A stretch of DNA of 64,000 bases from Kondoa subrosea (lineage: Eukaryota). Each line of letters begins with the position of its first letter. Within the stretch, counting starts at the first letter, position 1. Location of the stretch: positions 1,472,604-1,536,603 of the forward strand of contig BCIN01000001.1 in assembly GCA_039545335.1 (NCBI GenBank). The letters run 5' to 3'. Both the position numbers and the translations under genes were made by a program. Positions 1,388-61,269 of the stretch are shown here, piece after piece. The notes under the pieces are model-generated. The model was not told the origin of the DNA. It saw nothing but the letters and a program-made list of their open reading frames with translations, and did not search any database.

Positions 1388-1565
1388 AACATCCGGACAA
1401 GTGATCGAATCAAATGCTAAACAGGTATTATCATGAAGTAATCCGTGCGCCGAAAAAGCAGTATAGTAGCATAAGTATGAAGAAATGACGAGCCTTTTCG
1501 CTATCTTTTCGCAGTTTCTCCAAACCCCACGTTTGTCAAAAAGTTTTACTCACTGATAGACCACG

Positions 1566-4500
1566 ATGCCAGCGATATTTGGGCACTTGCCATTCTTGCC
1601 AGTCATTGCCAAGGATGAAGCAAACCAGCTACCCAGCGAAGATCTGTTGCTGCCTTTGGCTAGAATTGCGCCTATTGTGATTCCGACAGCAGCGCTTCGA
1701 TCAGTCCTCAATGTCCTGCCTGCGACATCCGAATACTGGGTCTTGGTCGAACCTGGTCTGCACTTGGATGTGATTGTAGCTCTTCTAGATGCTGGCGCTT
1801 CTCGTTTGGTTACATCGGACTTTTCATTACTTGGTCAAATACCTGCAGAACGACTGGTTCTCGCTCTGAATCCAGACTCAATACAATCTCTGTCTGCTCA
1901 CAAAGATGCTACATCGCTGGCTCAAGCTGTATCGGGCATCTTCCTCGAAACTCCGTTGAATCAAGATTCGGAAGGTTTCGATAAGAACCTGATATCGACT
2001 GCAAGGACTTTGCTGGGTGGGAAAGCAAGCAGAGAAGCTAAAGATATCTATGTCCTACCTTTTGGCAATGCTCAACCTACTTTGGATCAGCTCGAAGCAC
2101 TTTCAGCAATGCGTTTAGGAACAGTCGCTTGCCTTCCTACAACAATCCTTTCAGCAACTCCTCCTCCTATTGAATCTACAACAACAGCAGAGACTTCCCT
2201 TCCACCTCGAACTAAGAATGGCTATCATCTACCTATAGACGTTCTTTTCCTTTCTTCCCTGTCAACGGATCGAGACGACGCTCTATACGCAACATTAGTC
2301 ACAGCTCAAGGCGAACCACCTCTTGGCTTGGTCTACTCTTCACCACTCTCGATATCTTTATCCATCATCACTTCCAACGCAACTTATCACTCTCGTTCTC
2401 GAAACGCGCTTTGGGTGAAAGGAGCAACATCAGGAGCAACGCAACAAGTCGTCGCTATTCGTCGGGATTGCGATGGCGATGCATTAGAATTCATCATTGA
2501 TCAAAAACCCGGAACTGGGTTCTGTCATACACCTAAATCAGCTTCTTGTTTCGGTCCGGATCTTGGTCTGGGTACATTGGAAAAGACAATCAGACAAAGA
2601 CAAGCGGAAGCACCTCTTGGAAGTTACACCAAGAGACTGTTTGATGATGCCAATATGTTGGAAGCTAAGATTAGAGAGGAAGCGGAAGAAGTATGTCAGG
2701 CTCAGAGCTGGGAGGATACAAGGGCGGAAGCGGCGGATCTGCTTTATTTCCTGCTTGTGCGTTGAGAGCTGCTTCTAGACTATCCGGTCCTAAGTAAATG
2801 GTCTTGGGGTACAGGTTCGTTGCGCAGCAAAGAATGTATCATTAGCGGACGTGAAAGCTATCCTGGATCTACGAGCAGGCAAAGTCACTCGAAGACCAGG
2901 AAACGCCAAACCTGCCTTCATCAAGCCTTCAAGCAATGGCAAATCGAATGGCATAACCAATGGATCACCTGCTTCTTCCACTGCTGCTCTCGAAGCCACA
3001 AGTACGAAACTTCCGGCCAAGCTTGCGGGTATTCCTGCTGCAGAAGATGCTCAGATTAAGGAAGATGAAATTATTCCACCTGTATTTGACTTGGCGATGC
3101 TGCAAACGGAACAGAGAGCAGCACTACTCAAGAGACCGCTGATAGACAGTAAGGAGATGCTGGCGAAAGTTCAGCCTATTCTTGATCAAGTGTGCGTGAG
3201 ATGGTACTTCTTTGTCACAATTGAGACTTAGGAAATTTCCATCTGCCTACAGCAAATCTAATGGCGACGATGCACTACGGAAATTTGTCTCTACTCTAGA
3301 TCGATGTACAGCAGCAACAGAAATGAGCAAAACCAACAAGCCTTGGGACGTTGTTCTACGCGCGCCCTTCTCTCAAGATCTCATGACTCTATCCGATGAA
3401 ACAAGGAAAGCGATCGATACTGCCTTTGCAAACATTCATATGTTCCACTCGAAACAAGTGCGTGTGAGACATCAATGCTTAGCTTTGGTCTGATCCACAT
3501 ATTCCATATGTACAGATGGACAAAGAATCCACCGTTCTTCGAGTAGAAACCATGCCAGGAATAGTATGCACTCGTTTCGCCCGAGCAATAGACCACGTTG
3601 GTCTCTACATCCCAGGCGGTACTGCTGTTCTTCCTTCAACGATGATGATGTTGGGTATTCCTGCTTCGATCGCTGGTTGCAGACATATTTCCGTCGCTAC
3701 GCCTGCTGATAAAGATGGCAATGTCCGACCTGAAATCGTTTATATCGCTCAAAAGTGCGGAGTGAAAGAAATCGTTCGAGCTGTGAGTGTTGTCAATGTC
3801 TGCTCATTTACGGAGCTGAGGACTCGGCTTTCGCTCACAGGGAGGTGCTCATGCTGTTGCTTCAATGGCTTACGGAACAGAATCAGTCACTAAAGTAGAT
3901 AAGATCTTTGGACCTGGTAATCAATGGGTGACGGCAGCTAAAATGGCCGTGAGCATGGATTCTGGATCAAATGTATCTATCGATATGCCCGCTGGACCAA
4001 GTGAAGTTCTAGTGAGTATCTCCCTGCTTCCTGAACACCTGCATGTGCTAATTTGTATTTCAGGTCATTGCGGATCACACTTCCAATCCAGTCTTTGTAG
4101 CGGCCGACCTATTATCACAAGCAGAACATGGACCAGATTCGCAAGTCGTACTACTCGCAGCAGCACTAGAAGAAGATCACCTAGAACAAATCAAAGCAGA
4201 AATCTCCAAACAAGCTTTGGCTCTCCCTCGAGTGGATATCGTTCGAACATGTATCAGTAAATCACTCATTGTCAAAGTTGGTTCAAGGGAAGAAGCGTTG
4301 GAGTTCAGTAATGATTATGCACCGGAACATCTAATCTTGCATTTGGAAGACGCGGAAAGCGCTTTAGGACAGGTTAGGAATGCTGGCAGTGTGTTTGTTG
4401 GCGAATGGAGTCCAGAAAGGTGAGTGCAAGACATCAGAATGCATGCTAGATTATGGCTTAGAACGATCGCATCATTCACAGTTTGGGAGATTACGCTTCT

Positions 4501-5236: not shown

Positions 5237-6803
5237 ATGGTAGAAAGCAAGTACTGGATTCTAGCTAATCCAATAGAAAAAGAAAGTGAGTGCCTAGCTG
5301 CTTTGTATTTGCAGACTGAACGAAGCACTGATAATGCGCAATGTTATAGTCAAGGACGATAGTTTCCAACTCAAGACTGAGACTTTGCCAGAATTACAAG
5401 ATGGTCAAATCTTACTCAAGACTATTTACTTGTCTAATGATCCAGTAAGAGTCCCATTCCCCTCAAGGCTTTTGCTGACCAAGATGATGATGACGCGCAG
5501 GCTCAAAGAGGTTGGTGTCAAAAGGACGTAGATCCTAAAAGACTCTACGTTAGACCAGTTTATGGTGGTGAAACTATGCGAGCTGGAAGTGTTGCCAGAG
5601 TTGAAGAGAGTAAATCAGATAAATTAAAGAAAGGCGATCGTAGGTCTTCCCGCGTTATTGTATTTCAATACATATACTGAGAGGATAGTTGATGGATAAA
5701 CAGTCGTTTCCGCTCAAAGTGGATGGCGAGAATATCAAATCGTGAAAGCTGAAGAAGTCAAACCAATTAGAACTATCAAGGGAGTGAATCCATCAGTCTT
5801 TGTAGGTAGCTTAGGTGGACCTGGGTGAGCTTCTCTCTGGCTCTTATGATCTACTTTCTTTGATTTGTTGGCTAATGATATTCTTTGGGCAGACTTACGG
5901 CCTATTTCGGTTTGAAAGATGTGCTCGACTTCAAGAAAGGTCAAAGCATAGTCATTTCAGGAGCAGCTGGGTCCATTCTTCCTCTCCTACTTATCCTTAA
6001 ACGACGTGCTAATATCGCTATTGGTACAGAGCGGTAGGCAATGTAGTCTGTCAATTAGCCAAATCTATGGGAGCGAGCAAGATCATCTGTATTGCCGGAT
6101 CGGATGATAAATGCCAATGGCTCAAAACACTCGGAGCGGATGAAGCTATCAACTACAAGAATGCTGATTTCGAAGAGAAATTGATGAAAGCTACTGAAGA
6201 CGAAGTGGATTGCTATTTCGATAAGTATGTTCTATCTGTATATGTAGCGTGGGATTTGCGATTTATGAAATTTAAAACAGTGTTGGAGGACCGATCTTGG
6301 ATCTAATGCTCAAGAGAATCAAGAAACATGGTATTGTTGCTGCATGCGGAGCAATTTCAAGTTGGTCTCACATCTGTACCAAATTATACAGTCTAAGAGC
6401 TTCTTTTCTCGCCAGGCTACAATGATCCCAAAAATACTCGCTTGACAAATTGGTTCGAGATAAGTCTCTTCTCTTCTGTGTGATGATACCAAGCTCATAG
6501 CCTTGAGAATATCTACGTCATAGCCAATTCTTTGCAGATCAGAGGGTTCATCGTTATCAACTATTTACACCGCGCTGGTGAAGCCATTGAAGCTCTTTCG
6601 AAAGCTATCGAGAATGGTGATCTCAAGCTAGAAGGTGCAGAGACTGTCAAAGAAGTACCGTTTGAAAAGATTGTAAGTGCTTCCCTTCGTTGGTCAGTCG
6701 CGCCTAACTAATGAAACTTGCTTGATCAAAGCCCGAAACTTGGAAAGGATTGTTCTCTGGTGTGAATCAAGGCAAACTGGTTACTCAGATTGCTAAATTG
6801 TAG
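5237..6803 (+). CDS. NADP-dependent MDR-family oxidoreductase (prostaglandin reductase / 2-alkenal reductase-like) with C-terminal PTS1 AKL
   Basis: Spliced motifs YLSNDPAQRGW, LGGPGLTAYFGL, ISGAAGAVG, IAGSDDKC, YFDNVGG, CGAISSYN, IRGFIV and GKLVTQIAKL*. Confidence 0.9.
6460..6516 (+). other. Candidate AT-AC intron (U2-type consensus)
   Basis: GAG|ATAAGT...CTAC|GTC; removal gives NWFEVIANSLQIRGF. Confidence 0.55.
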
Positions 6804-16207: not shown

Positions 16208-17748
16208 ATGTCCTTATCTCATTCTTCCCAAGCTATCCTTCAGGGTTCAGTTATCCTCATCTCGTATGTTTGGCTTTCGTCCGGCCTGCTGTTGCTCAGT
16301 AGATATAGTGGTGGAGCCGGATTCGTCTCATCACACTTGATACAGCGTCTTCTCGACCCGATCTTCGGCATCACAAGAATTTTCACTATCGTTAGAAGCA
16401 AGCCTGGCGTCACATCAGCTTCTCGTCTTCCTCGTGCTCTTCATCCTTTTGTAGCTACAGAACTGAGTGATGCGGCCTTATCGGAAGGGCGTCTGGTCGT
16501 ATTGGATGGCGACTGTAGCAAGGACCGCTTTGGGTTGGCTGGGAAAGACTGGGATCTGCTGGATCAAGTCGACATCGTTGTCCATCCTGCAGCCAATACG
16601 AGCTTCCCCGAAAAACTTCTCCATATGCTGAAAACAGTAGTGAGTATTCCCCCTTCACTCTCCAAGTGAATTTTGCCGATCCTCATAATGTAGGCCGATC
16701 TAGCCTACAATATGGCTTGTTTCACTTTGACTAAGCCGAACGTCAAGCTACATCTGCATATTTCTTCCACCTACGCTGGTTGGAGTCAGCCCAGGGATGC
16801 CATAGTTCGGGAAGAGCCCTTCGAAGCCACGATTACACCTCATGACATGCCTGTAAGATTTTTACCTGCTCGTACTGTAGGCTCACTGAATGTCTCTTGG
16901 CAGACTTCGAAGTCAAAGCAATGGTGTTATCCTTTCTTGCAGGAGTCAGCATCATGCCTAGTGCCCAAGCTGTTTTCAGAATAGCAAGACTCAGCATCGT
17001 CGGACCTGCTATGCACCATCCATTTACTGCCAGTGGAGCGGTAGGAGCTTCTGTAAGCCTTTGATAACAAAATGTGCCTCTTCCTTCAACTAATCCATCA
17101 GCCGAACAGAGTCCCATCGCAGCTATGATTTCAGCCCATCCTATCCCGGATCACCTCATGAACACAGCAGGCGTATCTGATGGTACGTACAGCCATTCAT
17201 CTCATGCTAAGTATTCTCAATCTTGTCTCCTTTTCTTTGGACAGTCATTCCTATAGATTTCTGCGTGGACCAACTCATTGCAATCACGGCATCGTCTCTT
17301 CTCACCGCTCGCAAGCCAATCACTGCACCTCGTCCAATTCAAATCTATACTGTAGCTGCCGGTGCAGATAGGCAAGATCTTCTTCCATTGCGAATTGTTA
17401 ACAGCCCAAAGTTCAAGCTTGCCAAACCTTACATACCGTACAAGGTGGTCTTGTCGGTATACGAAAACATCTTCAATCATGTGAGACGCCCACCTGTCAC
17501 GAGAGTCCCGCCGCTGAAACTCTCGAGCAGAGCGTTTTGTTTGACAATAGCAAAACCAAATATATTTGCGGAATTGACCTTTCTGAATGCTCAGTAGATG
17601 AGAGTATTGATTGTTCTGATCTATATGTGGATTTCAAGAAAGCTTTGGCAGATTTGGGAGGATGGGAAGCGTATTATAACGCAATTAGAGATCACATGCA
17701 AAAGCAAGTAGATGTAAAAGGCAAGAAGGAAAGAAGTCAAAGCTCTGA
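16208..17748 (+). pseudogene. Fatty acyl-CoA reductase-like copy 3, with two apparent 1-nt deletions
   Basis: Same 6-intron layout as copy 2. It is 1 nt short just before the catalytic Tyr (~16847) and 1 nt short before KKSKL* (~17714-17730); KKSKL-TGA lies in the -1 frame, ending at 17748. Confidence 0.6.
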
Positions 17749-17818
17749 AGTGCAGGGATTCGAGCATAATACACAATTGGTAGAATCCAATGCAAGAAGG
17801 AAATTAGATGCGTGGGAT

Positions 17819-19315
17819 CTAGACTTTTTGATAATCTGTCGGCAAAAATGAGTTAATGACTCTTCAGAAAGAGAAGAAGAGCCCTGACCGGAACTTGACT
17901 CGTGCTTTTTGGCTTCTTGAAGCTTCCTCGCTGCCTTGTTCAAGTCATCTTGCACAATGTAATCTCTCTCATCTCGAATCGCGAACATTCCCGCTTCAGT
18001 AGCCACATTTCTCAAATCCGCACCATTGAAACCTTCAGACAATTTGACAATAGCTTCATAATCTATTTCTCCAGATTTCTTGACTGGCCCGCAGTGAATC
18101 TTGAGAATTTCTAAACGAGCAACTTCGTTAGGTAGAGGGATTTCAATCTTTCGATCTAATCTTCCTGGTCGAAGAAGAGCTGGATCGAGTGTGTCTGGTC
18201 TGTTTGTAGCCATAATAACTTTAGTTTTACCAAGGATATCGAAACCATCCATTTGATTGAGTAGCTGTATATTCCATCGCTCAGAATGACTATGCAAGAC
18301 AATCAGAGCAATGAACACATACCTCCATTAACGTCCGCTGAATTTCTCGATCTGCACTCGTCCCTTCACTAAATCTTCTTCCACCAATAGCATCGATTTC
18401 GTCCATGAAGATAATGCAAGGTTCATGTTCTTTTGCATAACCAAACATTTCCCTGATTAATCTCGCCGATTCACCAATATACTTGTCAACAATAGCAGAA
18501 GAAACGACTTTGAGGAAATTGACACCCATTGTAGTTGCAACAGCTTTAGCTAACAAAGTCTTGCCTGTTCCAGGTGGACCGTAAAGTAAGACACCTTTTG
18601 GAGGTTTGATACCAACGCGTAGAAAGAGTTCTGGGTTTTGTAATGGTAGTTCAATAACTTCTCTCAATTCCCTCACTTGTTCTCCTAAACCACCAATACC
18701 TGCAAATGTAACATTGCCTGGATCTTCCATTGACATATTGTAAACCATTGGATCCACTTCTCGAGGTAAGATTCGCATGATAGTTAGAGTAGTCATATCC
18801 AATGCTACCCGAACGTTTGGCTTAAGTTTGCTGACTTGTACTGAGTTACGACATCCAACTACATATCGAGGACCAGCAGAGGACTTGACAATGACTGTCA
18901 ATAGAAACTTAGAGTTGTATCATCGTGTGTAACCAAAGATTGAATACTAACATCGTTCGTCTGGTAGCTGTCTCAATACTTCGCCTATTATCTGTCCCAC
19001 GGATTGTAAAGCTTTGATGTCGTCCTCTGACTTCTCAAAATCGTTCTCCAGTGAGATGATGGACTTGCGCACTGTTTCGAAACATTCAGCTCAAGATCAT
19101 CCTATCCCAAGCAGCACTGACGCTTCTTGAGATTCTCTGCCATGTCCTCATGCTCCTTGATTTTCTGTGATTCCTAGTCAGCCTCACTGCGAACAAGATC
19201 ATCGAACGAATGCCCTAACCTTCTGATATGCTTGAATAGCTAGATCTTTAGGTGTAGGGGCTGCTGGCGGCTGCTCGGGTTGCGCTGTAGAGCTTGAGGC
19301 TACTGGTTCAGACAT
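17819..19315 (-). CDS. RPT4: 26S proteasome AAA-ATPase subunit Rpt4 (PSMC6)
   Basis: [58 protein letters not shown]-terminus DYQKV*. Confidence 0.96.
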
Positions 19316-37042: not shown

Positions 37043-40000
37043 TTACGCCAGGTACTAAAAACAGTCATCAGCATAGTCCAAGACCTTGCAGGCTGACTTA
37101 CAGCATAAGTGTCTCTTTGACCATCAACACGCTCCAGATATTCTTTGTCCAGCAACTATTGCCGACAGCATGAGCTTCTACGAGCTTCGTAAAGCAGGAA
37201 ACTCACAGTATCGATAGCCTTCTTGATGTCACTGACTTTCGGGTTGAAGCGAGTAGACAGTTGAGTAATAGCTTCTTGAATGAGCTGTTGGTGCTTTAAG
37301 GTCTGCAAGTAATCTGAGCTCGGTCGAGAAGTAAATAAAACGATGTTTACCTTTCGCGATTTCATAATTCGCACAATGACAGCCTGTATGCAGACAAGAT
37401 CCTCTATCAATTGAACACTAAATGTCCTCGTTGTCACTGACCTGAATGAGCAGCTTCCTGTCTTCGTCAACACTCTTTTGTACATCAGCTGCTTCGGCCT
37501 TGACTTCACTCTTGATAGGCATATTCAAGTTGACCCGGACCTGTACGGATCACAAGCTCTTAGCTTTGATGAAGCGAAAGGCTCATCGTCCGCACCTTCT
37601 TCGACTTGAACTTGAGATTAAGCTCATAGTTGCCATCCTTCTCCTCAATGACTCTCTGTTTGCACAAGAGACCCAAGTTGCCCTTCAAGTTGTTTTCATC
37701 CATCTTAGTAGCTTGCTTCAGGTCTTCGAGAGTGATGCTGTCGCCAAGATGATTGAACTGAAGCAGGATGGCGGATTGCTGTGAGCTGACTTGAAGAGTG
37801 TACTTCTGACCAGTGTAATTTGTTCGCAATTCGTTTCGAGACAGATTCCATAGCCAGGTCAGCTTCCGTCCGCTGTTCGAGAATGCGCATTCAGCCGCAA
37901 GCACATGATGCGCCAAGCCAAAAGTCCGACGAACCTGTACTTGTTGTTGTAGAAAGCCAAAAAGCGTTCGTAGGTCTTGAGAAGTTCTTGTGGAATATGC
38001 ATAGGCTCCGTTGGTGCAGTCAAAGGCCATGCAGCAGTACCAAGAACGAGAATGTGAAAGTCGACTGTCAGAATCCCGAACGATTAACGAGACAAGACAC
38101 TCATGCGACAGAGAGCAACTGACCATAAAGATCCTTGTCATCTTCATTACGTGACAGCTTCTCCTTGAACTCGTCATTCAACTCTTTGCAAACAGCAATG
38201 TCTGGGATCATCATTCAGCTATTGAAGTAATTAATTGATAACGACCAATACTGACCTCCAAACATGCGCGTCAGCTTGCTGGTGTACTCGAAACCGCAAG
38301 CGTCCTTGAGTTTTGAAATCATGTTCCCCTCAGCTTCGTCCGAAGCAGAAGCAAAGTGAATCAATCGTTTAGCCAACATCTTGGAGTAGAACTTCTGGAA
38401 GATATCTTTGTCTTCGATATATCGGAAGATAGTCATCTGTAAGATTGAAGAAGGCATCATGAGCATAATTCCCAAGCAGCACATCCATGCGTACAATACG
38501 AGTTAAAGCATTCTCCAAGTCATCTTCTTCAGCAGACTTGTTAGACTTACGCAGAAGACCATCAGAGTACTTGGAAAGGAGTTCAGGCGATTTTGAACTA
38601 GATGAACCGCAAGCTTTGTTTCGGTTGACAAATTCTCGGCAGGCCTGTTGACGATACAAGCTTATGAGCAAGAGCAGTGCATAAGGTCACGACGGACAAA
38701 CCTTGTCTAAAGAAGCGACGAAACCAGGTTCGCCCTTGAAAGCGCGTTGTACCAGTTCGTGATTCTTGCCATGTACAGCCAGCAATGCATCAACGTAGGC
38801 TTTAGGTTCCTGTGCATTTATTGTGGACTACCGATCAGCGAGAGGCTGATGGAATAGTCCTTGGAACGCACAACGTCAGCACCTTTCTCAGTTCCGCAAA
38901 TCCTCTCAACTCCTTCTGTACCCGCTCGCTTGACATGACCTTCGAAGCGTTCTCTGAGTGGATCCAAACCATTTGGAATACGGAAAAGCAAATTGTACAT
39001 TCGATTGAGATCATCTTCTTTATCCGCATCCAACAAACGTTGAAATTCTTCCTGCAAAGTTTCCGAATGATTCTTGACCAAGACGTTTTCGCAAGTGAGG
39101 ACCAATGATTTCCTAGACGAAGCATGCAAGTACATATCTACTCGATCTTCTTCTTCTTTCAGTCGAACTTCCGCTTTTACCATGTAATCCGTTACTGAGT
39201 TCTCTGCGATAAAAGTATCCGATTCGTTCTTGTAGTACATTTCTGTTGCAGTAATGAATGGTCTTTCGAAACCTTCCTTGTAAACATCCAGGTTCTGACG
39301 GTTCGCATCGTTCTCGTCAATACCCAAAGCAACAAGAGATTCGACTACACGTTCCATCAAGTTGGTATCGATCGCTTCTCCATTACGCTGTCTTTCAATT
39401 AAGCGCAAAACAGCATTGGTGAGTTTGTTCTTCTGTTGCACATGCTTGAAGAAATGATCTCGCCATTGTACTAGAGCGAGCTGTACATTTGGAAGGAAAG
39501 TCGGCATCAGAGTCCGTCTGATAACGCCACTCCAGCAAACGCACTGTGTAGACTGGATAAACATTCTTTCTCCCTTCATCTTTTTCTCGTTTGATCCAAT
39601 GTCGGTTCAAGTAAGTGAAGAGACGGTTGACGTAAGAAGCACCAGTAGTGTATCTCTTCCATTCGTCCGTGTAGTACTTGAGTAAAGGTTCATCAGCTAA
39701 TTCTTCAGCGTCCTGTCAATAATCGTCCTTTCAAGCAAAATTTGCTTGCTTTGAAGAAATATTACGAACCGATCGAACGCCTTTTAGATGAGAAGTAAAG
39801 TAAGTGTTTAGAGATTTGTACAGATCAGCGCCCATAAGGTTAGCTCCGCCTATAAATTTGTTGCGGTCTAATCAGCTTCTTCATATCACTTTCGATACGG
39901 AAGAAAATGAGACTGACTTCGTGCGTTCCCTCCTACGTCGTTGATGGAATTGGTGTTCATGCGTGAAGAGGTACAGAAGTTGTAGATGCTAGAAAAGCGA

Positions 40001-42507: not shown

Positions 42508-45500
42508 ATGCGAAAAGGCCACCTTTCGTACAAAGTACCTAATGTCAAGCTTCGTCCAGCACCACAAGCTGCAGCATCACAACAACGCGTAGTCAAACCT
42601 GTCACTCGAACCAAATACCTTAGACGAAAGAATAAGATCACCGAAGAAGTCGAAGAAGAGCAGCCTGTTGAAGGGCAAGAGGATGTTGAGGCAGAACAAG
42701 AAGAAGAGTTTGATGCGATTGCTCAGTCTGCTAGAGAAAGAAAACCTTTGGAAGGCAAGACAGTTTGTTTGACTGGTTTGCGCGATCAACGGGTCAGTCA
42801 TTAGCCATGCATGCATCGCCCGATGCTCATGTTTAATCGACTGACAGACTGAGTTGCAAAATATGGCTCGATCATTAGGTGCTGAAGTAGATATGGCTCT
42901 CACGCTGGACGTGACCCATTTAGTTGCTACTTCGGTCATGACACCCAAATACAAGGCGAGTAACCTGTTACTTCGTCCTCAATCACTCAACTTACAATGA
43001 TACAGGTCGCTATCGACTATGGAATCAAAGTCATGTCACCTTCTTGGCTCGAATCCATGCATGCCCAATATTTGCGCGGAGAACCAGTTGATCTTCTTCA
43101 AGCCACAGCTTTACACACACTACCTATCTTTCATGATCTTCAGATCTCAATTACTGCCATACCAGTACAACCACCTCAACCGAGAAAAGCTTTAATCGAA
43201 TCATTAGTAGAACATGGAGCTACTTTCCGCGCCAATTTTACCGACAACGTCACTCATTTACTCGTTGGTTCTGAAGTCGAAGCACAGAGCGTCTTCGCCC
43301 TAGCTAAAGTTATGAAAGCGCATGAGTTCCGGAGTACGAAAGGATCAGAAGTGAAAGTCGTTTGGAGTGAATGGTTGCAAGATTCTTTGACTATGGGAGG
43401 CGCTCTGGATGAAGTAAAGTATGATGTCAAGTTGCCTAGACCAGATCCGAACAGAATTATTGGCGTGAAATCTTGTCAGTGGTGTATCCCCCTTCGCTAT
43501 CTATGGTAGCTGAAGGCTCTTCCGTTTGACAGCGCAACAGTCTACTTCCAGTCCTAACAAGCTGCTGAGGCAGGATACCATTACCAACCTCTCAACCGAA
43601 GTGCCCGCTACAAGCAATGCCGCCTCTTCTGCCAATACTGGTATCAAACGTCAACGCAACGAAAATGGCGATGAGACCGAGGTTGTTGGAATCAAGAAAC
43701 GCGCCCGACCCAATAATACTTCTTCAGCTTTATTCGATGTCTTAGGTTACGATGCTGCTGCACCTGCCAGTATGAATCTGGACGATTTACCATCTCTGCC
43801 AGAAGTACCTACTGCACTTGCGACTAATGTCCAAACGGAGATAAAGGAAGCTTCACAGACTCAGTCAATGAGGAGATTAGCGCAAAACCGAACTGCTTCT
43901 TTCGCTTCATCTTCTAGACCTTCAGCTAAAGCACCTATTCTTCCCAAGAAAGAAGAAAATAGTGCTGTTTTGGATGATACCATCATGGCTGATGATTCTG
44001 GCTTCCAAACTACTTCTTCACCTAAAGTCAAGCCAAAGACTATACCGTCTTCTAAATTAGGCACTGCTCACGTTGATCTCGACCGGACAGAAGATATTGA
44101 TACTACTATGCAAGAAGCTGCTGAACCAGATCAAAGCCCCATAAAAGAGATTTTCAAGGATTGCAAGATCTGGTTGAGAGGTTTCGAACGTTCGAAAGCT
44201 TTGAATGCTGGTTCGGTCTGTCAAGAAGAAGGTGCTACTGTTTATATTGGTGGTGATGGCATCGGGAAAGAAGCAGAAATCGATTGGATTGTCGTTCCGT
44301 TTCTCAAGTAAGGATGTATCGGAAAGTTTGAGCCCAATCAAATTGCTCATTCGGATGACAGAGAATTACCAGAAGATATCGATGTCAACGACGAGAGAGT
44401 AGTCACGGACGCTTGGCTGGAAAGATGCTTCTTCCTTCAAGAAATCATTCCTGTTGAAAATCATTTTGCTGCAAAACATCGAGCTGCTTATCCGTTAAGA
44501 GGTGAGTTGCGTCTTTCCGCATCTTCGACACCATCCTAATACATCTGGATCCAGAATCGCAAAAGTATGAGCTCTCGCATTCTGGCTTCGATGAGTGCGA
44601 CCAAGTCAGCATCAGGCGAATATGTGAAGCCTTGGGTGGGTCGATTGGACATGTGTAAAAGCTGCAAGGACTTACGAATGCGTGAACAGGCGTTCCTCAC
44701 TCAAACAAACTTGATCTAGCAAAGACTACTCATATGCTCACAGTAGCTGAAGAAGGTCGTAAAGCTCAACGAGCAAGAGAAGCTGGTATTCCTGTTCACG
44801 GGATCGACTTCTTGCTAGATTTGGTCGATCAGTCTCGGCGTGATCAGGAAGACGAGCAGCAAGTGGTGCGGAAGGTCAAGGAAGAACAAGAAAGCCTGGC
44901 TTTGCCGCATGCAAGCGTCAAACAAAGTCAAAAGAAGACTAATGGTGAGCAATTGCTCTGTGCCTGCTGACTCCAATGTCTGACTCTTTGAACAGCTGGT
45001 GTACCCAAACCTCTTGCGGGATGCATTATCATGCACAGCAGCAAGCTACAACACCATCGACCCAAGATAATGCAACAGATTGACCAATTGGGCGGCGTAT
45101 TCGCCTACTCTTACAAGCCTCAAGTCACTCATCTTATTCACCATTCGACGCGCGATAGAGAGACATTTGGTGATTTCAAAAAAGCACGGAAAGACAAGAA
45201 ATTCATCTGTCACCCTCGTTGGCTTGAGGAATGTCTGTCCAAGAGCAGCAGGCCGGATGAGCGTGCATACCCTCACACTTGGTCTCAAAACAAGCAGCTC
45301 GCCTATGTAGTTGCTTCTGACTCGCAGGCTATCGGGTCAACTAGTCAAAGTCAAAGTCGAGCTGCTACTCCCTCGATTACTCGCCGAACTTCATCTGGAT
45401 CGCAGAAGCTTGCGGATCCTCTGTCGGACGACCTTCCACCTCCTCTCGAATTCCCTGATTCTGCAATGCCACCTCCGTCCGAAGTGGCCGTGCAGAAGGA

Positions 45501-46283
45501 GGAGATGATCCTCGATGGCTTGAACGATGCTTCTGAATTCATCATTCCCCCTGCCGCTGAGCCTGCTCCTCTTCAGGCTCAGCATACACATATTGGCAAA
45601 GAGTCACAAGATGCTCATTTCACTCAGCTGAAGTCGAGTGCTACTGTGCAAGATGATCCAGAACTTCAGCGCACTACAAGTGCAACCGTAGAAGGACCTC
45701 AGATCACTCCTCCTTTGCCAGAACATCCTCCATCAGCAGAGGGTGAGAAGGAAACACCAAACAAAAGTGTGCAAGGCGGTTTGACTGAAGGTGCTTTGGA
45801 CCATTATCGAAAAGTTTGGGGTGTTTCTGTCGATGCCGGGAACTCTTCTGGGAACAGCAGTACGGCTAGCAAGAGTAAACGGAAGATCAGACCTACTGAT
45901 CGTCGACGAGTGAGTTGTCCTCACCTCATCGAAATCTGCAGAATGTAGCTGAATCAATTTTGGCTTAGAATCAGTCTGTCGACAAACAACCTCTACCAGC
46001 TGATGCGATCGATGAAGATCGTCTCTTTGGTCATCATCCTGAGCTTCGTCGTCCACCTCGACAACCTTTCGACATGTCTCAAACTCAAGCAGTTCAATTT
46101 GATGATTTCGACAAAGAACCAGCAGAAGAATCTATGCGCATCGTCGTCATTGATCCTGCTGCAGCTGCTGCTCGAGCAGAACTCTTAGGTCAAGTTTACA
46201 AACCGGAAGTTGGTCATGTTTTGGATTTATCACCAGTTATAGATAAGCGAAGAAGTACGAGGAAAGCTGCTGAATCGAGATGA
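42508..46283 (+). CDS. DPB11: Multi-BRCT replication/checkpoint scaffold, Dpb11/Cut5/TopBP1-like
   Basis: Several BRCT repeats: PLEGKTVCLTG..VTHLVA..KYKVA..VMSPSWL, VTHLLVG..VVWSEWLQDS, VVTDAWLERC, VTHLIH..ICHPRWLEEC. Confidence 0.75.
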
Positions 46284-53427: not shown

Positions 53428-55845
53428 TCACACGCGAACGATATCAATTCTACACCTCTCATATACTCTGTTTTCTGTAACATGTTGATCCGCTGCCATT
53501 GCTGCTTTGCTCAATTCCGTACGTAGCTCATCTTTGCTGAATGGATGCACTGCGATGCGAGTGAATGTTCCGCCATTAGACCCTCTTGTCAGATATGATG
53601 GGTTGACGACGATTGTACTGTCGACAGTCTACGAACTAAATCAGCAGAGTCCAGCCAAGTAAGGATAAAGATTTACCTTGACGAAATGTTTCCCTAAAGT
53701 GCTCGGAAGAACGACGATATCCGCACCAAACCCGTCAAACTTGAGTAAATCCGAATGCGTCACATCAAGGTTAATGCCCTCTATGCCAGCACCTGGTAAC
53801 GGTGGAGGGAAAATAGGATAGAAACTTCTTTGACGCAGAACGTGTCGGCACACTCTGCCTATATGATCTTTGGCTGCTTCTTGATGCGATGTGACTTCAT
53901 CTGGGTTGGATGGAGGAGCTTCTTTGAGATATTCTTGTGAACGGAGAGGAAAGAGGACATCCGCTGATGAAATGGCGAAGTTGACTTCATTAATGGAGAA
54001 CGTAGCAGGATTTGGCAGCAGCTTGACTCTCTATTCAAGCGATAAAGTTAGAGGATGCACTTCCCATATAGCAAGAGAGTTTCTGACCTTTGGCAAACCC
54101 ATCTCTGGATCTCGTTCGAGTGGTGCTTGAGGGAAAACAACATGTGAACTGAGTACATCTCTATTGCTCGGAATAAGAATGATGTTGGTTCCAGGTGACG
54201 ACTCCATCAACCCGTTCAGACGAGCAGAGATTTGCATCTGGAAGATTTGAGGTGGTGAGTAAGAAATATCGCCGGATCTGATAGCTGGGTGATTTGAGTC
54301 AACAAAAGGTCCAACCTGCCTTTGTACTTAGCGCCGTTTACTAAAAGCATATCTCACTCACCAGAATGAGCGTGTCAGGTTTCGTTTTCCTCGCTTCCGC
54401 TATCAGCGCATCAAGAGGGACGTAATCGAGATTGTCCTCTGTTGTGTAAGGACCAGCAGCGAGCATGACCGAAAGAGCCCTTCCAGCAAGCTTCATGTCA
54501 GAATGATGATACTCCATGAGGTCTTTTGGCATGCTAGCGGGTAGGTACATAGGTGGCATCTGCCTTCAGCTTCAGCTTCAACCGAACAATGGATCGCGCG
54601 CGCGAAACACTCACCATCAGGATCTCGTTGACATTGAAGAATTGTCCTCCAACATTCCTTCCTCTGACACCCACGATTGCGCCTGGAAACAGACCAGCAC
54701 CTCCATCCCCAACTTCACTTCCTCTCACTTTTACGTCCTGATCAAACCGCAATTCTATCCTAGCACCAGCTCCCATCAACCTAGAACTCTCAAACCAAAC
54801 CGAGTTCTTCTTCTTATCAACCGCATCTTGAAGTTTAGCAGCATACAAATCAGTGCAAATCCTTCCAACACAAATCATATCTTCTTGACTATCTAAACCA
54901 GGATCACCTAATTCTTCTTCCAATTCATAATATTGTTTCATGAGTTCTGAAAGTTCATCAATCCTGTTATCCAGACTTTCTGATCGATCAACAAGTTTCT
55001 CAAACATATATCTGTAAGCGTAAGATTTTGGGTTGGTGTTTGAAGCTAGTTTCACTCTTGGGTTTAAAGAGGAAACGGGAATAGGAAGATCTAGATGTGC
55101 GTTGAGGGATTCGACGATTGTTAATGCGTTTGTACGGGATTCGAATTGCGAAGGTTGAGGAGTTGTGAAGAATGGCTTGTTGATAGAAGAAGGGGATAAA
55201 GCTGTTGGACTTGTAGCTCTACCTGAATTTGCTGATGGGGAAAGTTGAAGTTTGTCTGGAGTAGTTTGATTAGCTCGAGGTGTTGCTGCTGATAGAGTTG
55301 AAGGGCGAGGAGTATAATTTGATGGAATACCATTGACTGTTGATGGACTTCCAATCGATCTTCTCTTGGCTGCAGGTGTAGACAGATTGTCCAGCCTAAA
55401 GATCTTCTCATCAGCCTACTGTCTTTTATCAATAGGTATTAATGTACTGACAATCCATCTAGACCACTTCGACCTAATGATTTCCTCAAAGTAGTCTTAG
55501 CAGCGGGTCCAGGTGTCCCAGCTCCATTAGCAGGTTCCAGCTTGATGGGTTTAACAGAACTCTGAATCTCCTTTCGCAATTCTCTTAAGTTGTCCAAATC
55601 AAAATCAGGTTCATCCCGTTTAGCAGAAGTATTTGTAAGTTGGAAAACGAAAGCATCCCATTTGTATTTGAGATCTTCTGCTGATAGACTATAAATTCGA
55701 CAAATGCTCATTGCTATATAAACGCGCGTTTATAAGTATAATGTTTTACGCGTTTTGTTGTAAGAGGCAGTGACTGACCTTCTGACATTACATCTGCAGG
55801 TTTTATAGCTGCTCCAAATTGAGCAATGAGTTCTTCTGAGGACAT
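53428..55845 (-). CDS. POL12: DNA polymerase alpha-primase B subunit
   Basis: ICRIYSLSAEDLKYKWDAF, YRYMFEKL, VGRIC.D, LFPGAIVGVRG.N, AAGPYT, GPFVD, PNPATFSINEV, QRSFYPIFP. Confidence 0.92.
55717..55753. promoter_or_regulatory. MCB-like elements and 18-bp palindrome inside POL12 intron 1
   Basis: TATAAACGCGCGTTTATA (55717-55734, perfect palindrome) and ACGCGT (55748-55753). Confidence 0.5.
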
Positions 55846-57448: not shown

Positions 57449-60400
57449 ATGGATGAACATCCTCAGCAAAAGCATCGAGGGCATAGAGTCCAGAAGGATA
57501 AAGGCAAAGAGAAGCCTAATCTGTATGTCAAGAACCCTCTCACTGCACCTTTGCTCAAAGCTCATACGTATTGCTTGACATAGGAAGGGATCCAATCCAA
57601 GAGCGTTCACATCTCAAAGTGGAGCTAAAGCTGCTCGTTTAGCAAGAAGAAAAGTAGAGCAAGATCAAACGAGGTTGCATCTACCTGCTGTTGATCGAAC
57701 ATTTGGCGGTCATGCTCAAGGTCAAGGAAAGAGTTCAGTCTTGGGTGGTGCTGTCAAAGGTGCAGCGGATGCATTAGGTCCTCCTCCTGTCATTGTTGCT
57801 GTCATTGGTCCTCCTGGCGTTCGTTCTCATAAACCAAAATCATCCTCTTGTGGCTGATTTGGCCTTTCTCCAAACAAACAGGTCGGCAAATCTACTCTTA
57901 TTCGCAGCTTAATTCGCAAATACACAAAAGTCACCATGACAGATATCAAAGGACCAGTCACTGTAGTCAGCGGTATGTACCTCTTCGCCTGAACCGATTT
58001 ATGCTCATTCAGACGAACAGGTAAAACCCGTCGAGTCACCCTGATCGAATGCCCGAACGAATTGGGAGCTATTGTAGATATCGCAAAGATTGCAGATCTG
58101 GTCTTGATCATGATTGATGGTTCATTCGGGTTCGAAATGGTTCGTTCTTGGTCTTCAGATCAATAACTAGCGCTCATCAAGTATTCAGGAAACCTTTGAA
58201 GCTCTTTCAGCTATGAACGCACACGGTCTACCCAAAATCATTGCTGTTCTAACTCATCTCGACCTTATCAAATCCGCTGCTACATTGAAAGATCAGAAAA
58301 AGAAACTCAAGCATCGATTTTGGACTGAAGTCTTTGATGGAGCGAAAATGTTTTACTTGTCAGGAATCATCAACGGTCGATATCCAGATCGAGAAATCAT
58401 CAACTTATCTCGATTCATCAACGTAGCTAAATTCCGACCTTTAACTTTTCGAAATTCCCATCCTTATTTCTTGGCTGATCGAATTGAAGATCTTACACCA
58501 AAAGAAGCAACAAGAGAAGATCCTAAAATTGATAGAACCATAGCTGTTTTTGGTTATCTTCGTGGTATTCCTTTAAGACCACCAAATGGTACCAACGCAA
58601 TCCGAGTTCATATTCCTGGATCAGGTGTGGATGCATTGGAATGTTCAAAATTACTCGCTTTACCAGATCCTTGTCCTCTACCTACGAAAGAAAGCGAGAA
58701 ACGTAGGAAATTAGGTGAAAAGGATAGATTGTATCATGCACCAATGTCTGGCGGTGCTGGAGGTCAGGTCGTTTTCGATGGTGATCGAGTTTGGATCAAT
58801 ACTGCCGGAACCTTTACAAAAGCGAAAGAGGGAGAAGAAGGAAACGGTAGGTTGGCAATGTACTGAAATCAGAAAGTCGCTGATTCATAGCTATTGCCTG
58901 CTTACAGTGCCACTTGGCGAAGGGGAACAAATGATTATGGACTTGCAAGATGTCAATGGTACTCTAGCCGACGGCATTGCGAAGTCTCAAATTCGTCTTT
59001 TTGGTCATGATTCTATGCCTGTCCAAATCGGATCCTCCAAAGATCTAGAACTAGACGAAGACGCTTCTGATTTAGATGAAGACGCTTCCGATTTTGATGA
59101 AGAGGTTTACTCGGGGGAGGACGATCTGGAAGAAGAGATGGATCTTGATGAATCTTCTCGAGCACCGAAACGGAGTGGTCAACGAATAGCTTTGACTGGT
59201 CCGACTGAATCAAGCAAACCTTCGAGGAATGGGATAGCTTATGCTGAAAGTGATTCCGATCTTGGCTTTGGGTCAGATGAAGACAATATGCTGGACGAAG
59301 AAGACGATCTTGAAGACGTACCGAAATGGAAGTCAAATCTATCTCAGAAAGCTGCAGACAGTTTCGCCGCGACTTCGAATCGCCGACGACCGAATCTTAT
59401 GAAACTCATCTACAGTTCTTCTCTTACTCCCGATCAGATTGTCAAAGGCGACGAAGATGATCCAGCGGACGATATACAGCTGGACGACGACGAGCTATTC
59501 CAGCTTGCGAGACGAGGTCCAACTGGCATTGAAGAGTCGTTTAGACCACCTGTAGAAACTGCTACTCTGGCTTCAAAATACAGTGTAGATGAAGCCTTGG
59601 ATGGACTGCGGCATCTCTTCATTACTGGACAAGCCAGTGGCGCGAATAGTGCTCCTGTCATCGATCGGCAATACGAATCCGATGCTGGTAGCTTCGAAGA
59701 CCTGGAAAACGACAATGATGAGGCCGATGAAGAAGGAGAAGGAACTGCTGAAAAGTCAGAGGAGCAGAAAGCAAAAGATCTGGCTGCGAAGAAAGAAGTT
59801 CTTAAGCGAAAATTCAACGAGCAATACGATGACTCTTCAGACGAGGCAGATAAGCAAGACTTCTACACAGAACAGAAAGAAGAAATGGCGAAACGTATTG
59901 CAGCTACTCAAGCCGAATTTGTGAACGACGACGCAGAAACAAGAGCCATGGTCGAGGGTTATCGACCGGGCACATACGTCCGTATGGAGCTGCATAACGT
60001 ACCTTGTGAGCTTCTCGACAACTTCGATCCTCGCTTCCCTCTTCTTGTTGGCGGACTTCTCGGTCACGAGGAAAGTTTCGGCTACGTACAAGTACGCATC
60101 AAGAAGCATCGTTGGTTTCCCAAGATCCTGAAGACAAACGATCCTCTTATCTTCTCCATCGGTTGGCGACGCTTCCAGACTGTACCGGTATATTCTTTGG
60201 ATGACGGTACGCGGAATCGGATGCTCAAGTATACTCCTGAACACATGCATTGTCTGGCTACATTTTATGGTCCGATCTCGGCCCCGAACAGTGGCTTCTG
60301 CGCCTTCAACTCCTTCTCTGACGCAACTCGCTCTTTCCGTGTGACGGCTTCAGGCACTATTCTCGATATTGATGGCTCAAGTCAGATAGTCAAGAAGCTC

Positions 60401-61269
60401 AAATTGAATGGTGTACCTTACAAGATTTTCAAGAATACTGCTTTTATCAAAGAAATGTTCAACACTTCACTCGAAGTGGCCAAGTTCGAAGGTGCTCAAA
60501 TTCGAACAGTCTCTGGCATTCGCGGTCAAATCAAGAAGGCGCTATCAAAGCCGGAAGGATGCTATCGTGCCACCTTCGAAGATCGAGTATTGCTTAGCGA
60601 TATCGTGTTCTTGCGTTCTTGGTTCCAAGTACAGCCACGAAAGTACTACAATCCGATGTCCTCTTTATTGCTTGAGAAGAAATCAGAATGGCAAGGTATG
60701 CGTCTGACGGGTCAAGTGAGAGTCGAAGAGGGTGCAAAGACTCCCTCGAACGTGAACTCAATTTACAAGGTAAGACGGACACTATGCGTGCGCTTTGTGC
60801 TCACGACTTGCGTAGAAAATCGAACGGCCTACCCGGCGATTCAACACGCTCAAAGTTCCGCGCAAACTTCAAGCTGCTCTGCCTTATGCTTCAAAATCCA
60901 AGATCATTGCGCCTCAGAAGCAGGCTACTTACATGCAGAAGCGAGCTGTTATTATGGATCCGGCGGAACAGAAAGCACTCGGTCTACTGCAGCAGATTCA
61001 GGCAATTGAGAAGAACAAAGTCGCCAAGAGGAAAGATAAGCAGCAAGAGAGGCGAGTTGAGAAACAGAAAAAGATGGCTAAAGGTGAAGAAGCCAAAGCA
61101 GATCGCGAAAAGAGGGAGAAGAAAGAGCGTACGTTCAGCATTATATGGTCGGCTTAGATCGAGCTGATAAGATTGCACAGACTTCCGCAAGCAAGGTCAA
61201 CAAGAGAAGCGCAAAGCTGAAGCTGAAAGCAGACCTGCGAAGAAGTCCAGGCGGAACGCAGACGATTGA
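57449..61269 (+). CDS. BMS1: Ribosome biogenesis GTPase Bms1
   Basis: PPPVIVAVIGPPGVGKSTLIRSL, GPVTVVSGKTRRVTLIEC, DGSFGFEMETFE, GYRPGTYVR, RMLKYTPEHMHC, IRTVSGIRGQIKKA. Confidence 0.97.

Follow-up and report, generated by a model that had tools for sequence, protein, structure and literature searches.

Type II AT-AC introns are defined by a 5′ splice site that matches the U2-type consensus except at position +1, with preservation of the boundaries in orthologous genes as a supporting criterion (Sheth et al. 2006, PMC1557818). In that compilation the class amounts to 24 of ~610,000 introns from five species (human 15, mouse 6, and fly 3), and fungal cases, in xylanase genes, are mentioned there as hypothesised only. 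A very strong /ATAAGT consensus (the slash marks a splice junction here and below) characterises the U2-type AT-AC introns of that compilation, and U12 introns carry the highly conserved 5′ consensus /ATATCCTT (Gould et al. 2016, PMC5029451). According to Sheth et al. 2006 (PMC1557818), a change of the first intron G to A is rescued in both yeast and human by a change of the last G to C. AT-AC splicing was engineered in yeast by Parker and Siliciano 1993, as cited in the later literature, and an endogenous example is the nested intron of yeast RPL30 (PMC5029451). In fungi more broadly, AT-AC introns made up 0.03% of introns in SnowyOwl, an RNA-seq-guided annotation of three fungi (PMC4084796), and are described as a minor class by Frey and Pucker 2020 (PMC7072748). 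In Ascomycota and Basidiomycota, minor introns are reported to be missing and minor snRNAs to be scarce or absent (Larue and Roy 2023).

We describe here a candidate member of this class, intron 8 of a predicted reductase gene in the window, by which we mean the whole 64-kb stretch of DNA that was analysed. The interval starts with AT (6460–6461) and ends with AC (6515–6516). On the evidence of sequence and homology, we put at roughly four in five the probability that 6460–6516 is a spliceosomal intron, 57 nt long and in phase 0, that belongs to the rare AT-AC class of U2 type (type II) and resides in the gene of a fungal MDR reductase. Coordinates of the gene, of the intron and of the competing splices are collected in Table 1.

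Table 1. Features of the predicted reductase gene and candidate splices at intron 8, in window coordinates
Feature	Position	Strand	Description
CDS, predicted CurA/PTGR1-like MDR NADP-dependent enoyl reductase	5237..6803	+	10 exons, 342 aa, AT-AC model
Exons 1–5	5237–5285, 5350–5444, 5501–5639, 5704–5824, 5893–5970	+	
Exons 6–10	6030–6224, 6281–6360, 6416–6459, 6517–6672, 6732–6803	+	
Exon 8	6416..6459	+	44 nt; final codons are the conserved N-W-F-E
Putative intron 8	6460..6516	+	57 nt, phase 0, AT..AC; 5′ site GAG/ATAAGT, 3′ site TATCTAC/G
TGA in the frame of the upstream exon	6481..6483	+	within intron 8; read from the sequence
Candidate branch site CTCAT	6494..6498	+	A at 6497, 19 nt upstream of the AC end; by eye
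Exon 9	6517..6672	+	opens GTC ATA GCC (V-I-A), conserved [VI]-I-[STA] block
Candidate splice, AT-AC	6460–6516	+	57 nt; NWFE-VIA-NSLQ
Candidate splice, GT-AG (GTCTCT..CATAG)	6464–6523	+	60 nt; NWFE-IT-NSLQ
Candidate splice, GT-AG (GTGTGA..TGCAG)	6478–6537	+	60 nt; NWFE-ISLFSS-IRGF
Candidate splice, GT-AG	6453–6500	+	48 nt; NC-LENIY-VIANSLQ
Candidate splice, AT-AG	6460–6507	+	48 nt; NWFE-NIY-VIANSLQ

The host gene encodes, by prediction, a CurA/PTGR1-like enoyl reductase of the MDR superfamily. Membership was judged by an ADH_zinc_N Rossmann domain following an ADH_N_2-type N-terminal domain, together with full-length similarity to the family. Exon 6 gives the Pfam ADH_zinc_N match (PF00107, E 2e-17), and homologues of the reductase carry PF00107 plus PF16884. 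With 6460–6516 removed, the 342-aa product aligns to its nearest relative, the 341-aa P0002, with 249 identities (73%) and without a single internal gap. The closest named relatives are Agaricomycetes, at 54–57% identity. In the gene tree the window protein and P0002 fall within an unresolved polytomy alongside basidiomycete rows, and outside a supported, mostly ascomycete clade that consists of 13 ascomycete rows, one unnamed row and a Mycena row. This placement is suggestive at most, and the host is probably a basidiomycete.

Apart from intron 8 the gene is intact, with an open frame and eight further introns, all GT..AG and 55–68 nt long. Their donors are GTGAGT, GTAAGA, GTAGGT, GTGAGC, GTCCAT, GTATGT, GTTGGT, and GTAAGT, and their acceptors are YAG with the exception of one AAG. 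The weak donor GTCCAT, which lacks G at +5, belongs to intron 5 (5971–6029, +); the boundaries of this intron are set by homology, as P0002 has the residues GAAG/AVGN unbroken, and the modelled product ranks first in the boundary test described below. The gene model is least secure at the N-terminus and intron 1 (5237–5349, +). In the only sequencing run found, X1, 5% of the words occurred, and its one matching contig, 225 nt long and ~97% identical, spans 5501–5639 and 5704–5784, with no sequence from 6416–6672. The contig is joined at 5639/5704, the modelled intron 3, and the gene of a very close relative is thus both transcribed and spliced.

Elsewhere in the window, a long ORF at 1560–2762 (+) has PRA-CH and PRA-PH domains and in this resembles HIS4-type genes of histidine biosynthesis. 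Fragments of housekeeping genes lie at 17740–18919 (−), 38821–39606 (−), 44992–45945 (+), 54537–55415 (−), and 58715–61006 (+). Pfam assigns among these five a proteasomal AAA ATPase, a cullin, a BRCT-domain protein and a DNA polymerase alpha subunit B OB domain, and an Atlas look-up adds a Bms1/Tsr1-type ribosome biogenesis protein, for which the clusters returned were broadly eukaryotic. These fragments indicate an ordinary gene-dense region of a fungal chromosome.

On the + strand the two junctions read TGG TTC GAG/ATAAGTCTC...ATATCTAC/GTC ATA GCC AAT, with GAG at 6457–6459, ATAAGT from 6460 to 6465, and CTAC at 6513–6516 followed by GTC. The first-pass annotation had drawn attention to this site, and the letters it reported (GAG/ATAAGT and CTAC/GT) and their coordinates are exact in the sequence. 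We also reproduced both of its products: NWFE-VIA-NSLQIRGFIV when 6460–6516 is excised, the full junction sequence being TNWFE-VIA-NSLQIRGFIV, and NWFE-IT-NSL when the GT-AG alternative 6464–6523 is excised. The in-frame TGA makes read-through impossible, so that either an intron is needed or the gene is broken. The recognisable protein frame picks up again at 6517. The reverse complement of the interval runs GT..AT, and hence it is not a canonical intron read on the wrong strand. The only pyrimidine tract of intron 8 lies just past the 5′ site, at 6466–6477, and none adjoins the 3′ end. In the other introns, CTRAN branch motifs are found 15–24 nt from the 3′ ends. CTCAT matches this motif imperfectly; it may serve as the branch site, and we treat it as a non-consensus candidate that is not decisive. 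Compared by eye, the AT-AC and GT-AG readings both have imperfect branch-site candidates alone.

Position and protein conservation carry the case for the AT-AC boundaries. We compared the junction with a close set of 125 full-length homologues (P0002–P0126; the fragment P0001 was left out), in which the conserved N and G that serve as anchors occur in 119 and 124 sequences, respectively. The number of residues between them is 12 in 124 of the 125 and 13 in the remaining one; a count of 11 does not occur. The columns before the junction hold N in 119, W in 111, F in 88 and E in 104 of these homologues, and the columns after it hold V in 75 or I in 46, then I in 114, then S in 47, T in 24 or A in 22. 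The variable loop of the family is found upstream of the junction, where it separates the Y of the SSYN motif from the N. A diverse set was assembled by an exhaustive search with P0002, which yielded 150 representatives clustered at 50% identity; four of them end short of the anchor columns, leaving 146 that could be counted. Here the spacing is 12 in 142, 13 in three and 11 in one. The AT-AC model gives 12. An alignment of homologues for spacing was the check that the first-pass annotation had put forward, and its statement that the GT-AG alternative is one residue too short is borne out in both sets.

The nearest relative reads TNWFQ-VIA-NRLNLKGFIV at this position, the same in length and in VIA as the AT-AC product. 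The 341-aa ORF of P0002 lies on a 1131-nt contig that leaves introns no space. P0001, from a contig of 16.9 kb, is identical to P0002 in the exons they share save for one residue, and reads through an intron at GAAG/AVGN, which means that the P0001/P0002 lineage has introns. Spliced RNA is the most likely source of P0002. For P0008, P0009 and P0020 the contigs likewise barely exceed the ORFs, and the spacing is the same as in P0002. A metagenome scan with P0002 gave 144 pattern matches, from which a single locus was confirmed (L001, 39% identity). A query of the exon 9 protein for longer proteins returned 24 candidates, none of them significant.

We listed all in-frame, stop-free splices at the site across eleven dinucleotide combinations. 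This listing includes the GT-AG option 6478–6537, as well as some longer and shorter ones, that were absent from the first-pass annotation. The N-to-G spacing is 12 for AT-AC, 11 for 6464–6523 and 6478–6537, and 15 for 6453–6500 and 6460–6507. Scored against the homologue profile, six splice models gave 499.8 bits for AT-AC versus 491.4 bits for the best rival; when P0002 was withheld from the profile, the scores were 495.0 and 487.1 bits. Of the recognised splice pairs, AT-AC alone restores the 12-residue spacing together with the V-I-x residues.

The best-surviving competitor is that the cell splices the GT-AG pair 6464–6523, alone or beside AT-AC, with a product (NWFE-IT-NSLQ) that is shorter by one residue. 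This splice is in frame with canonical dinucleotides, a TTGAG motif can be seen by eye 17 nt upstream of its 3′ end, and the weakness of its donor GTCTCT is not decisive, since the gene already uses the weak donor GTCCAT at 5971. Several observations speak against it. The resulting spacing of 11 residues is absent from the 125 close homologues and occurs once among the 146 diverse ones, the product scores 8.3–8.4 bits under the AT-AC model, and its donor lacks the G at +5 that seven of the eight other introns have. Moreover, the letters GTC ATA G, which read as codons for the conserved V-I, would be intronic by coincidence, and in-frame GT..AG pairs arise easily here by chance, with five in the splice listing. 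We consider this alternative improbable.

To calibrate the profile scores, we applied a boundary test to all nine introns, in which every in-frame, stop-free boundary pair within ±12 nt, with any dinucleotides, was used to build a product that was scored against the profile. For the control introns, the modelled GT-AG product ranked first in 7 of 8, either by itself or level with shifted boundaries that encode an identical protein. Only intron 1, at the variable N-terminus, departs from this: its modelled product ranked 93 of 207 against the profile without P0002, and still matches P0002 without an internal gap. At intron 8 the AT..AC pair ranked first among 205 boundary variants. Only when this 57-nt interval is moved by +1 to +4 does the score stay within 0.1 bit; the moved versions give E-I-I-A and have the ends TA..CG, AA..GT, AG..TC, and GT..CA. 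Homology thus fixes the predicted intron at a length of 57 nt and its start within 6460–6464. The choice of AT..AC among the five starts rests on splice-site rules and not on the score: it is the sole recognised pair, and the sole one with a consensus 5′ site.

The hexamer ATAAGT by itself is not above chance, with 23 occurrences in the window, compared with 27.5 ± 5.1 after shuffling. GTAAGT is enriched, with 36 occurrences against 21.7 ± 4.8, a count that none of 100 shuffles reaches. What exceeds chance at intron 8 is placement, the AT standing right after the NWFE codons and the AC right before the VIA codons. A scan for ATAAGT sites that bridge to a YAC between reading frames of at least 40 open codons on each side returned 0 of the 23 sites in the window; it misses intron 8 as well, because exon 8 has only 14 codons, and the scan is too insensitive to be informative.

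A second alternative is that the true ends are GT..AG at 6460 and 6516, and that the letters seen reflect sequencing or assembly errors, a rare allele, or a freshly disabled pseudogene. The accuracy of the bases at 6460 and 6516 rests on the assembly, which leaves room for such an explanation. It would, however, take two independent hits on exactly the two terminal nucleotides, which together would happen to make the known compensating A/C pair, and the ~1 kb CDS with its eight other introns remains intact. We regard this as highly improbable.

Judged by motif, GAG/ATAAGT is the U2-type consensus except at +1, as in the 5′ sites of type II introns. It is also the donor consensus of the gene itself, altered only at +1. 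An intron of the U12 type, removed by the minor spliceosome, would share the AT..AC termini, and in the U12 branch motif, which lies ~10–15 nt from the 3′ end, it would find a partial counterpart here: CCTTGAG at 6501–6507 (+) agrees with 6 of 8 positions of that consensus and places an A 10 nt from the 3′ end. At the 5′ site, however, ATAAGTCT (6460–6467) agrees with /ATATCCTT at only 4 of 8 positions and follows the /ATAAGT consensus instead, in keeping with the view of the first-pass annotation that a U12-type start is not present. As the 5′ site is not of the U12 type, the resemblance of CCTTGAG to a branch motif is plausibly due to chance. The nearest named relatives of the reductase are Agaricomycetes, and Ascomycota and Basidiomycota lack minor introns as reported by Larue and Roy (2023); the host likely has no minor spliceosome. 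An Rfam scan of the 64-kb window gave no match and no snRNA gene, a result that has little bearing on the rest of the genome. A U12-type identity is accordingly a very remote prospect, and we infer use of the major spliceosome from the motifs and the probable Dikarya origin.

An equally remote prospect is the GT-AG splice 6478–6537. It keeps the frame, and no other candidate has as good-looking an acceptor (TTTGCAG), but it leaves a spacing of 11, replaces six conserved residues and scores ~16 bits under AT-AC.

If intron 8 is a U2-type AT-AC intron, its removal might proceed as follows. The site GAG/AUAAGU keeps the full consensus for recognition by U1 and U6 save for the A at +1, and the 3′ end has UAC where YAG is usual. 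The two terminal nucleotides of an intron contact each other in the major spliceosome at the second catalytic step, where A...C can take the place of the usual G...G. Splicing in the cell is inferred to join 6459/6517, and the mRNA would then encode ...TNWFE-VIA-NSLQIRGFIV.... Sheth et al. 2006 (PMC1557818) describe the rescue of a first-G-to-A change by a last-G-to-C change, which the first-pass annotation had invoked as the compensation of terminal A and C in the major spliceosome. As for origin, the intron at this site could once have been GT-AG and have switched to AT..AC recently and in this lineage specifically, in a fungus whose only spliceosome is the major one. The compensating pair (G to A at the first position, G to C at the last) would then have been fixed naturally by way of a poorly spliced intermediate. 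We offer this as a speculation that is unlikely to be right. If it were true, inefficient splicing or competition with the nearby GT-AG pair might lower reductase expression or make it more diverse.

Few intron classes are as rare as the U2-type AT-AC introns, which form the natural counterpart of the classic suppression experiments on first and last intron nucleotides. Intron 8 is a probable addition to this known, very rare class, with good support from protein comparison; AT-AC type II as such was already known, and our understanding of splicing is unchanged by it. A clean fungal case with a perfect /ATAAGT would suit tests of second-step proofreading, and more so if a minor spliceosome is probably absent. 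There is also a practical consequence, in that gene finders restricted to GT-AG would yield a one-residue deletion within a conserved block.

Intron 8 can be set beside several described systems. The type II AT-AC introns of human SCN4A/SCN5A and TAF2 (PMC1557818) share with it the AT..AC ends, the U2 consensus at all 5′ positions but +1, and the lack of a U12-type 5′ site. Unlike the type II set described by Sheth et al., it is fungal, very short (57 nt), located in an MDR reductase gene, and predicted from sequence and homology. With U12-type AT-AC introns it has the terminal dinucleotides in common; it differs in the 5′ site, which is not /ATATCCTT, and in the machinery, since those introns use the minor spliceosome and the likely host lineage of intron 8 is without one. 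The bulk counts of SnowyOwl and of Frey and Pucker concern the same dinucleotide class in genomes of Dikarya, but as reported they do not type the spliceosome intron by intron, whereas intron 8 is argued singly from protein conservation. A mechanistic parallel is AT-AC splicing in Saccharomyces cerevisiae, a fungus with only the major spliceosome in which the A/C pair compensates, as we propose here (PMC5029451). The nested intron of yeast RPL30 has a 5′ site unlike /ATAAGT and is spliced in ~1–2% of transcripts (PMC5029451), whereas intron 8 matches the consensus perfectly, and AT-AC splicing would have to be its main productive splice.
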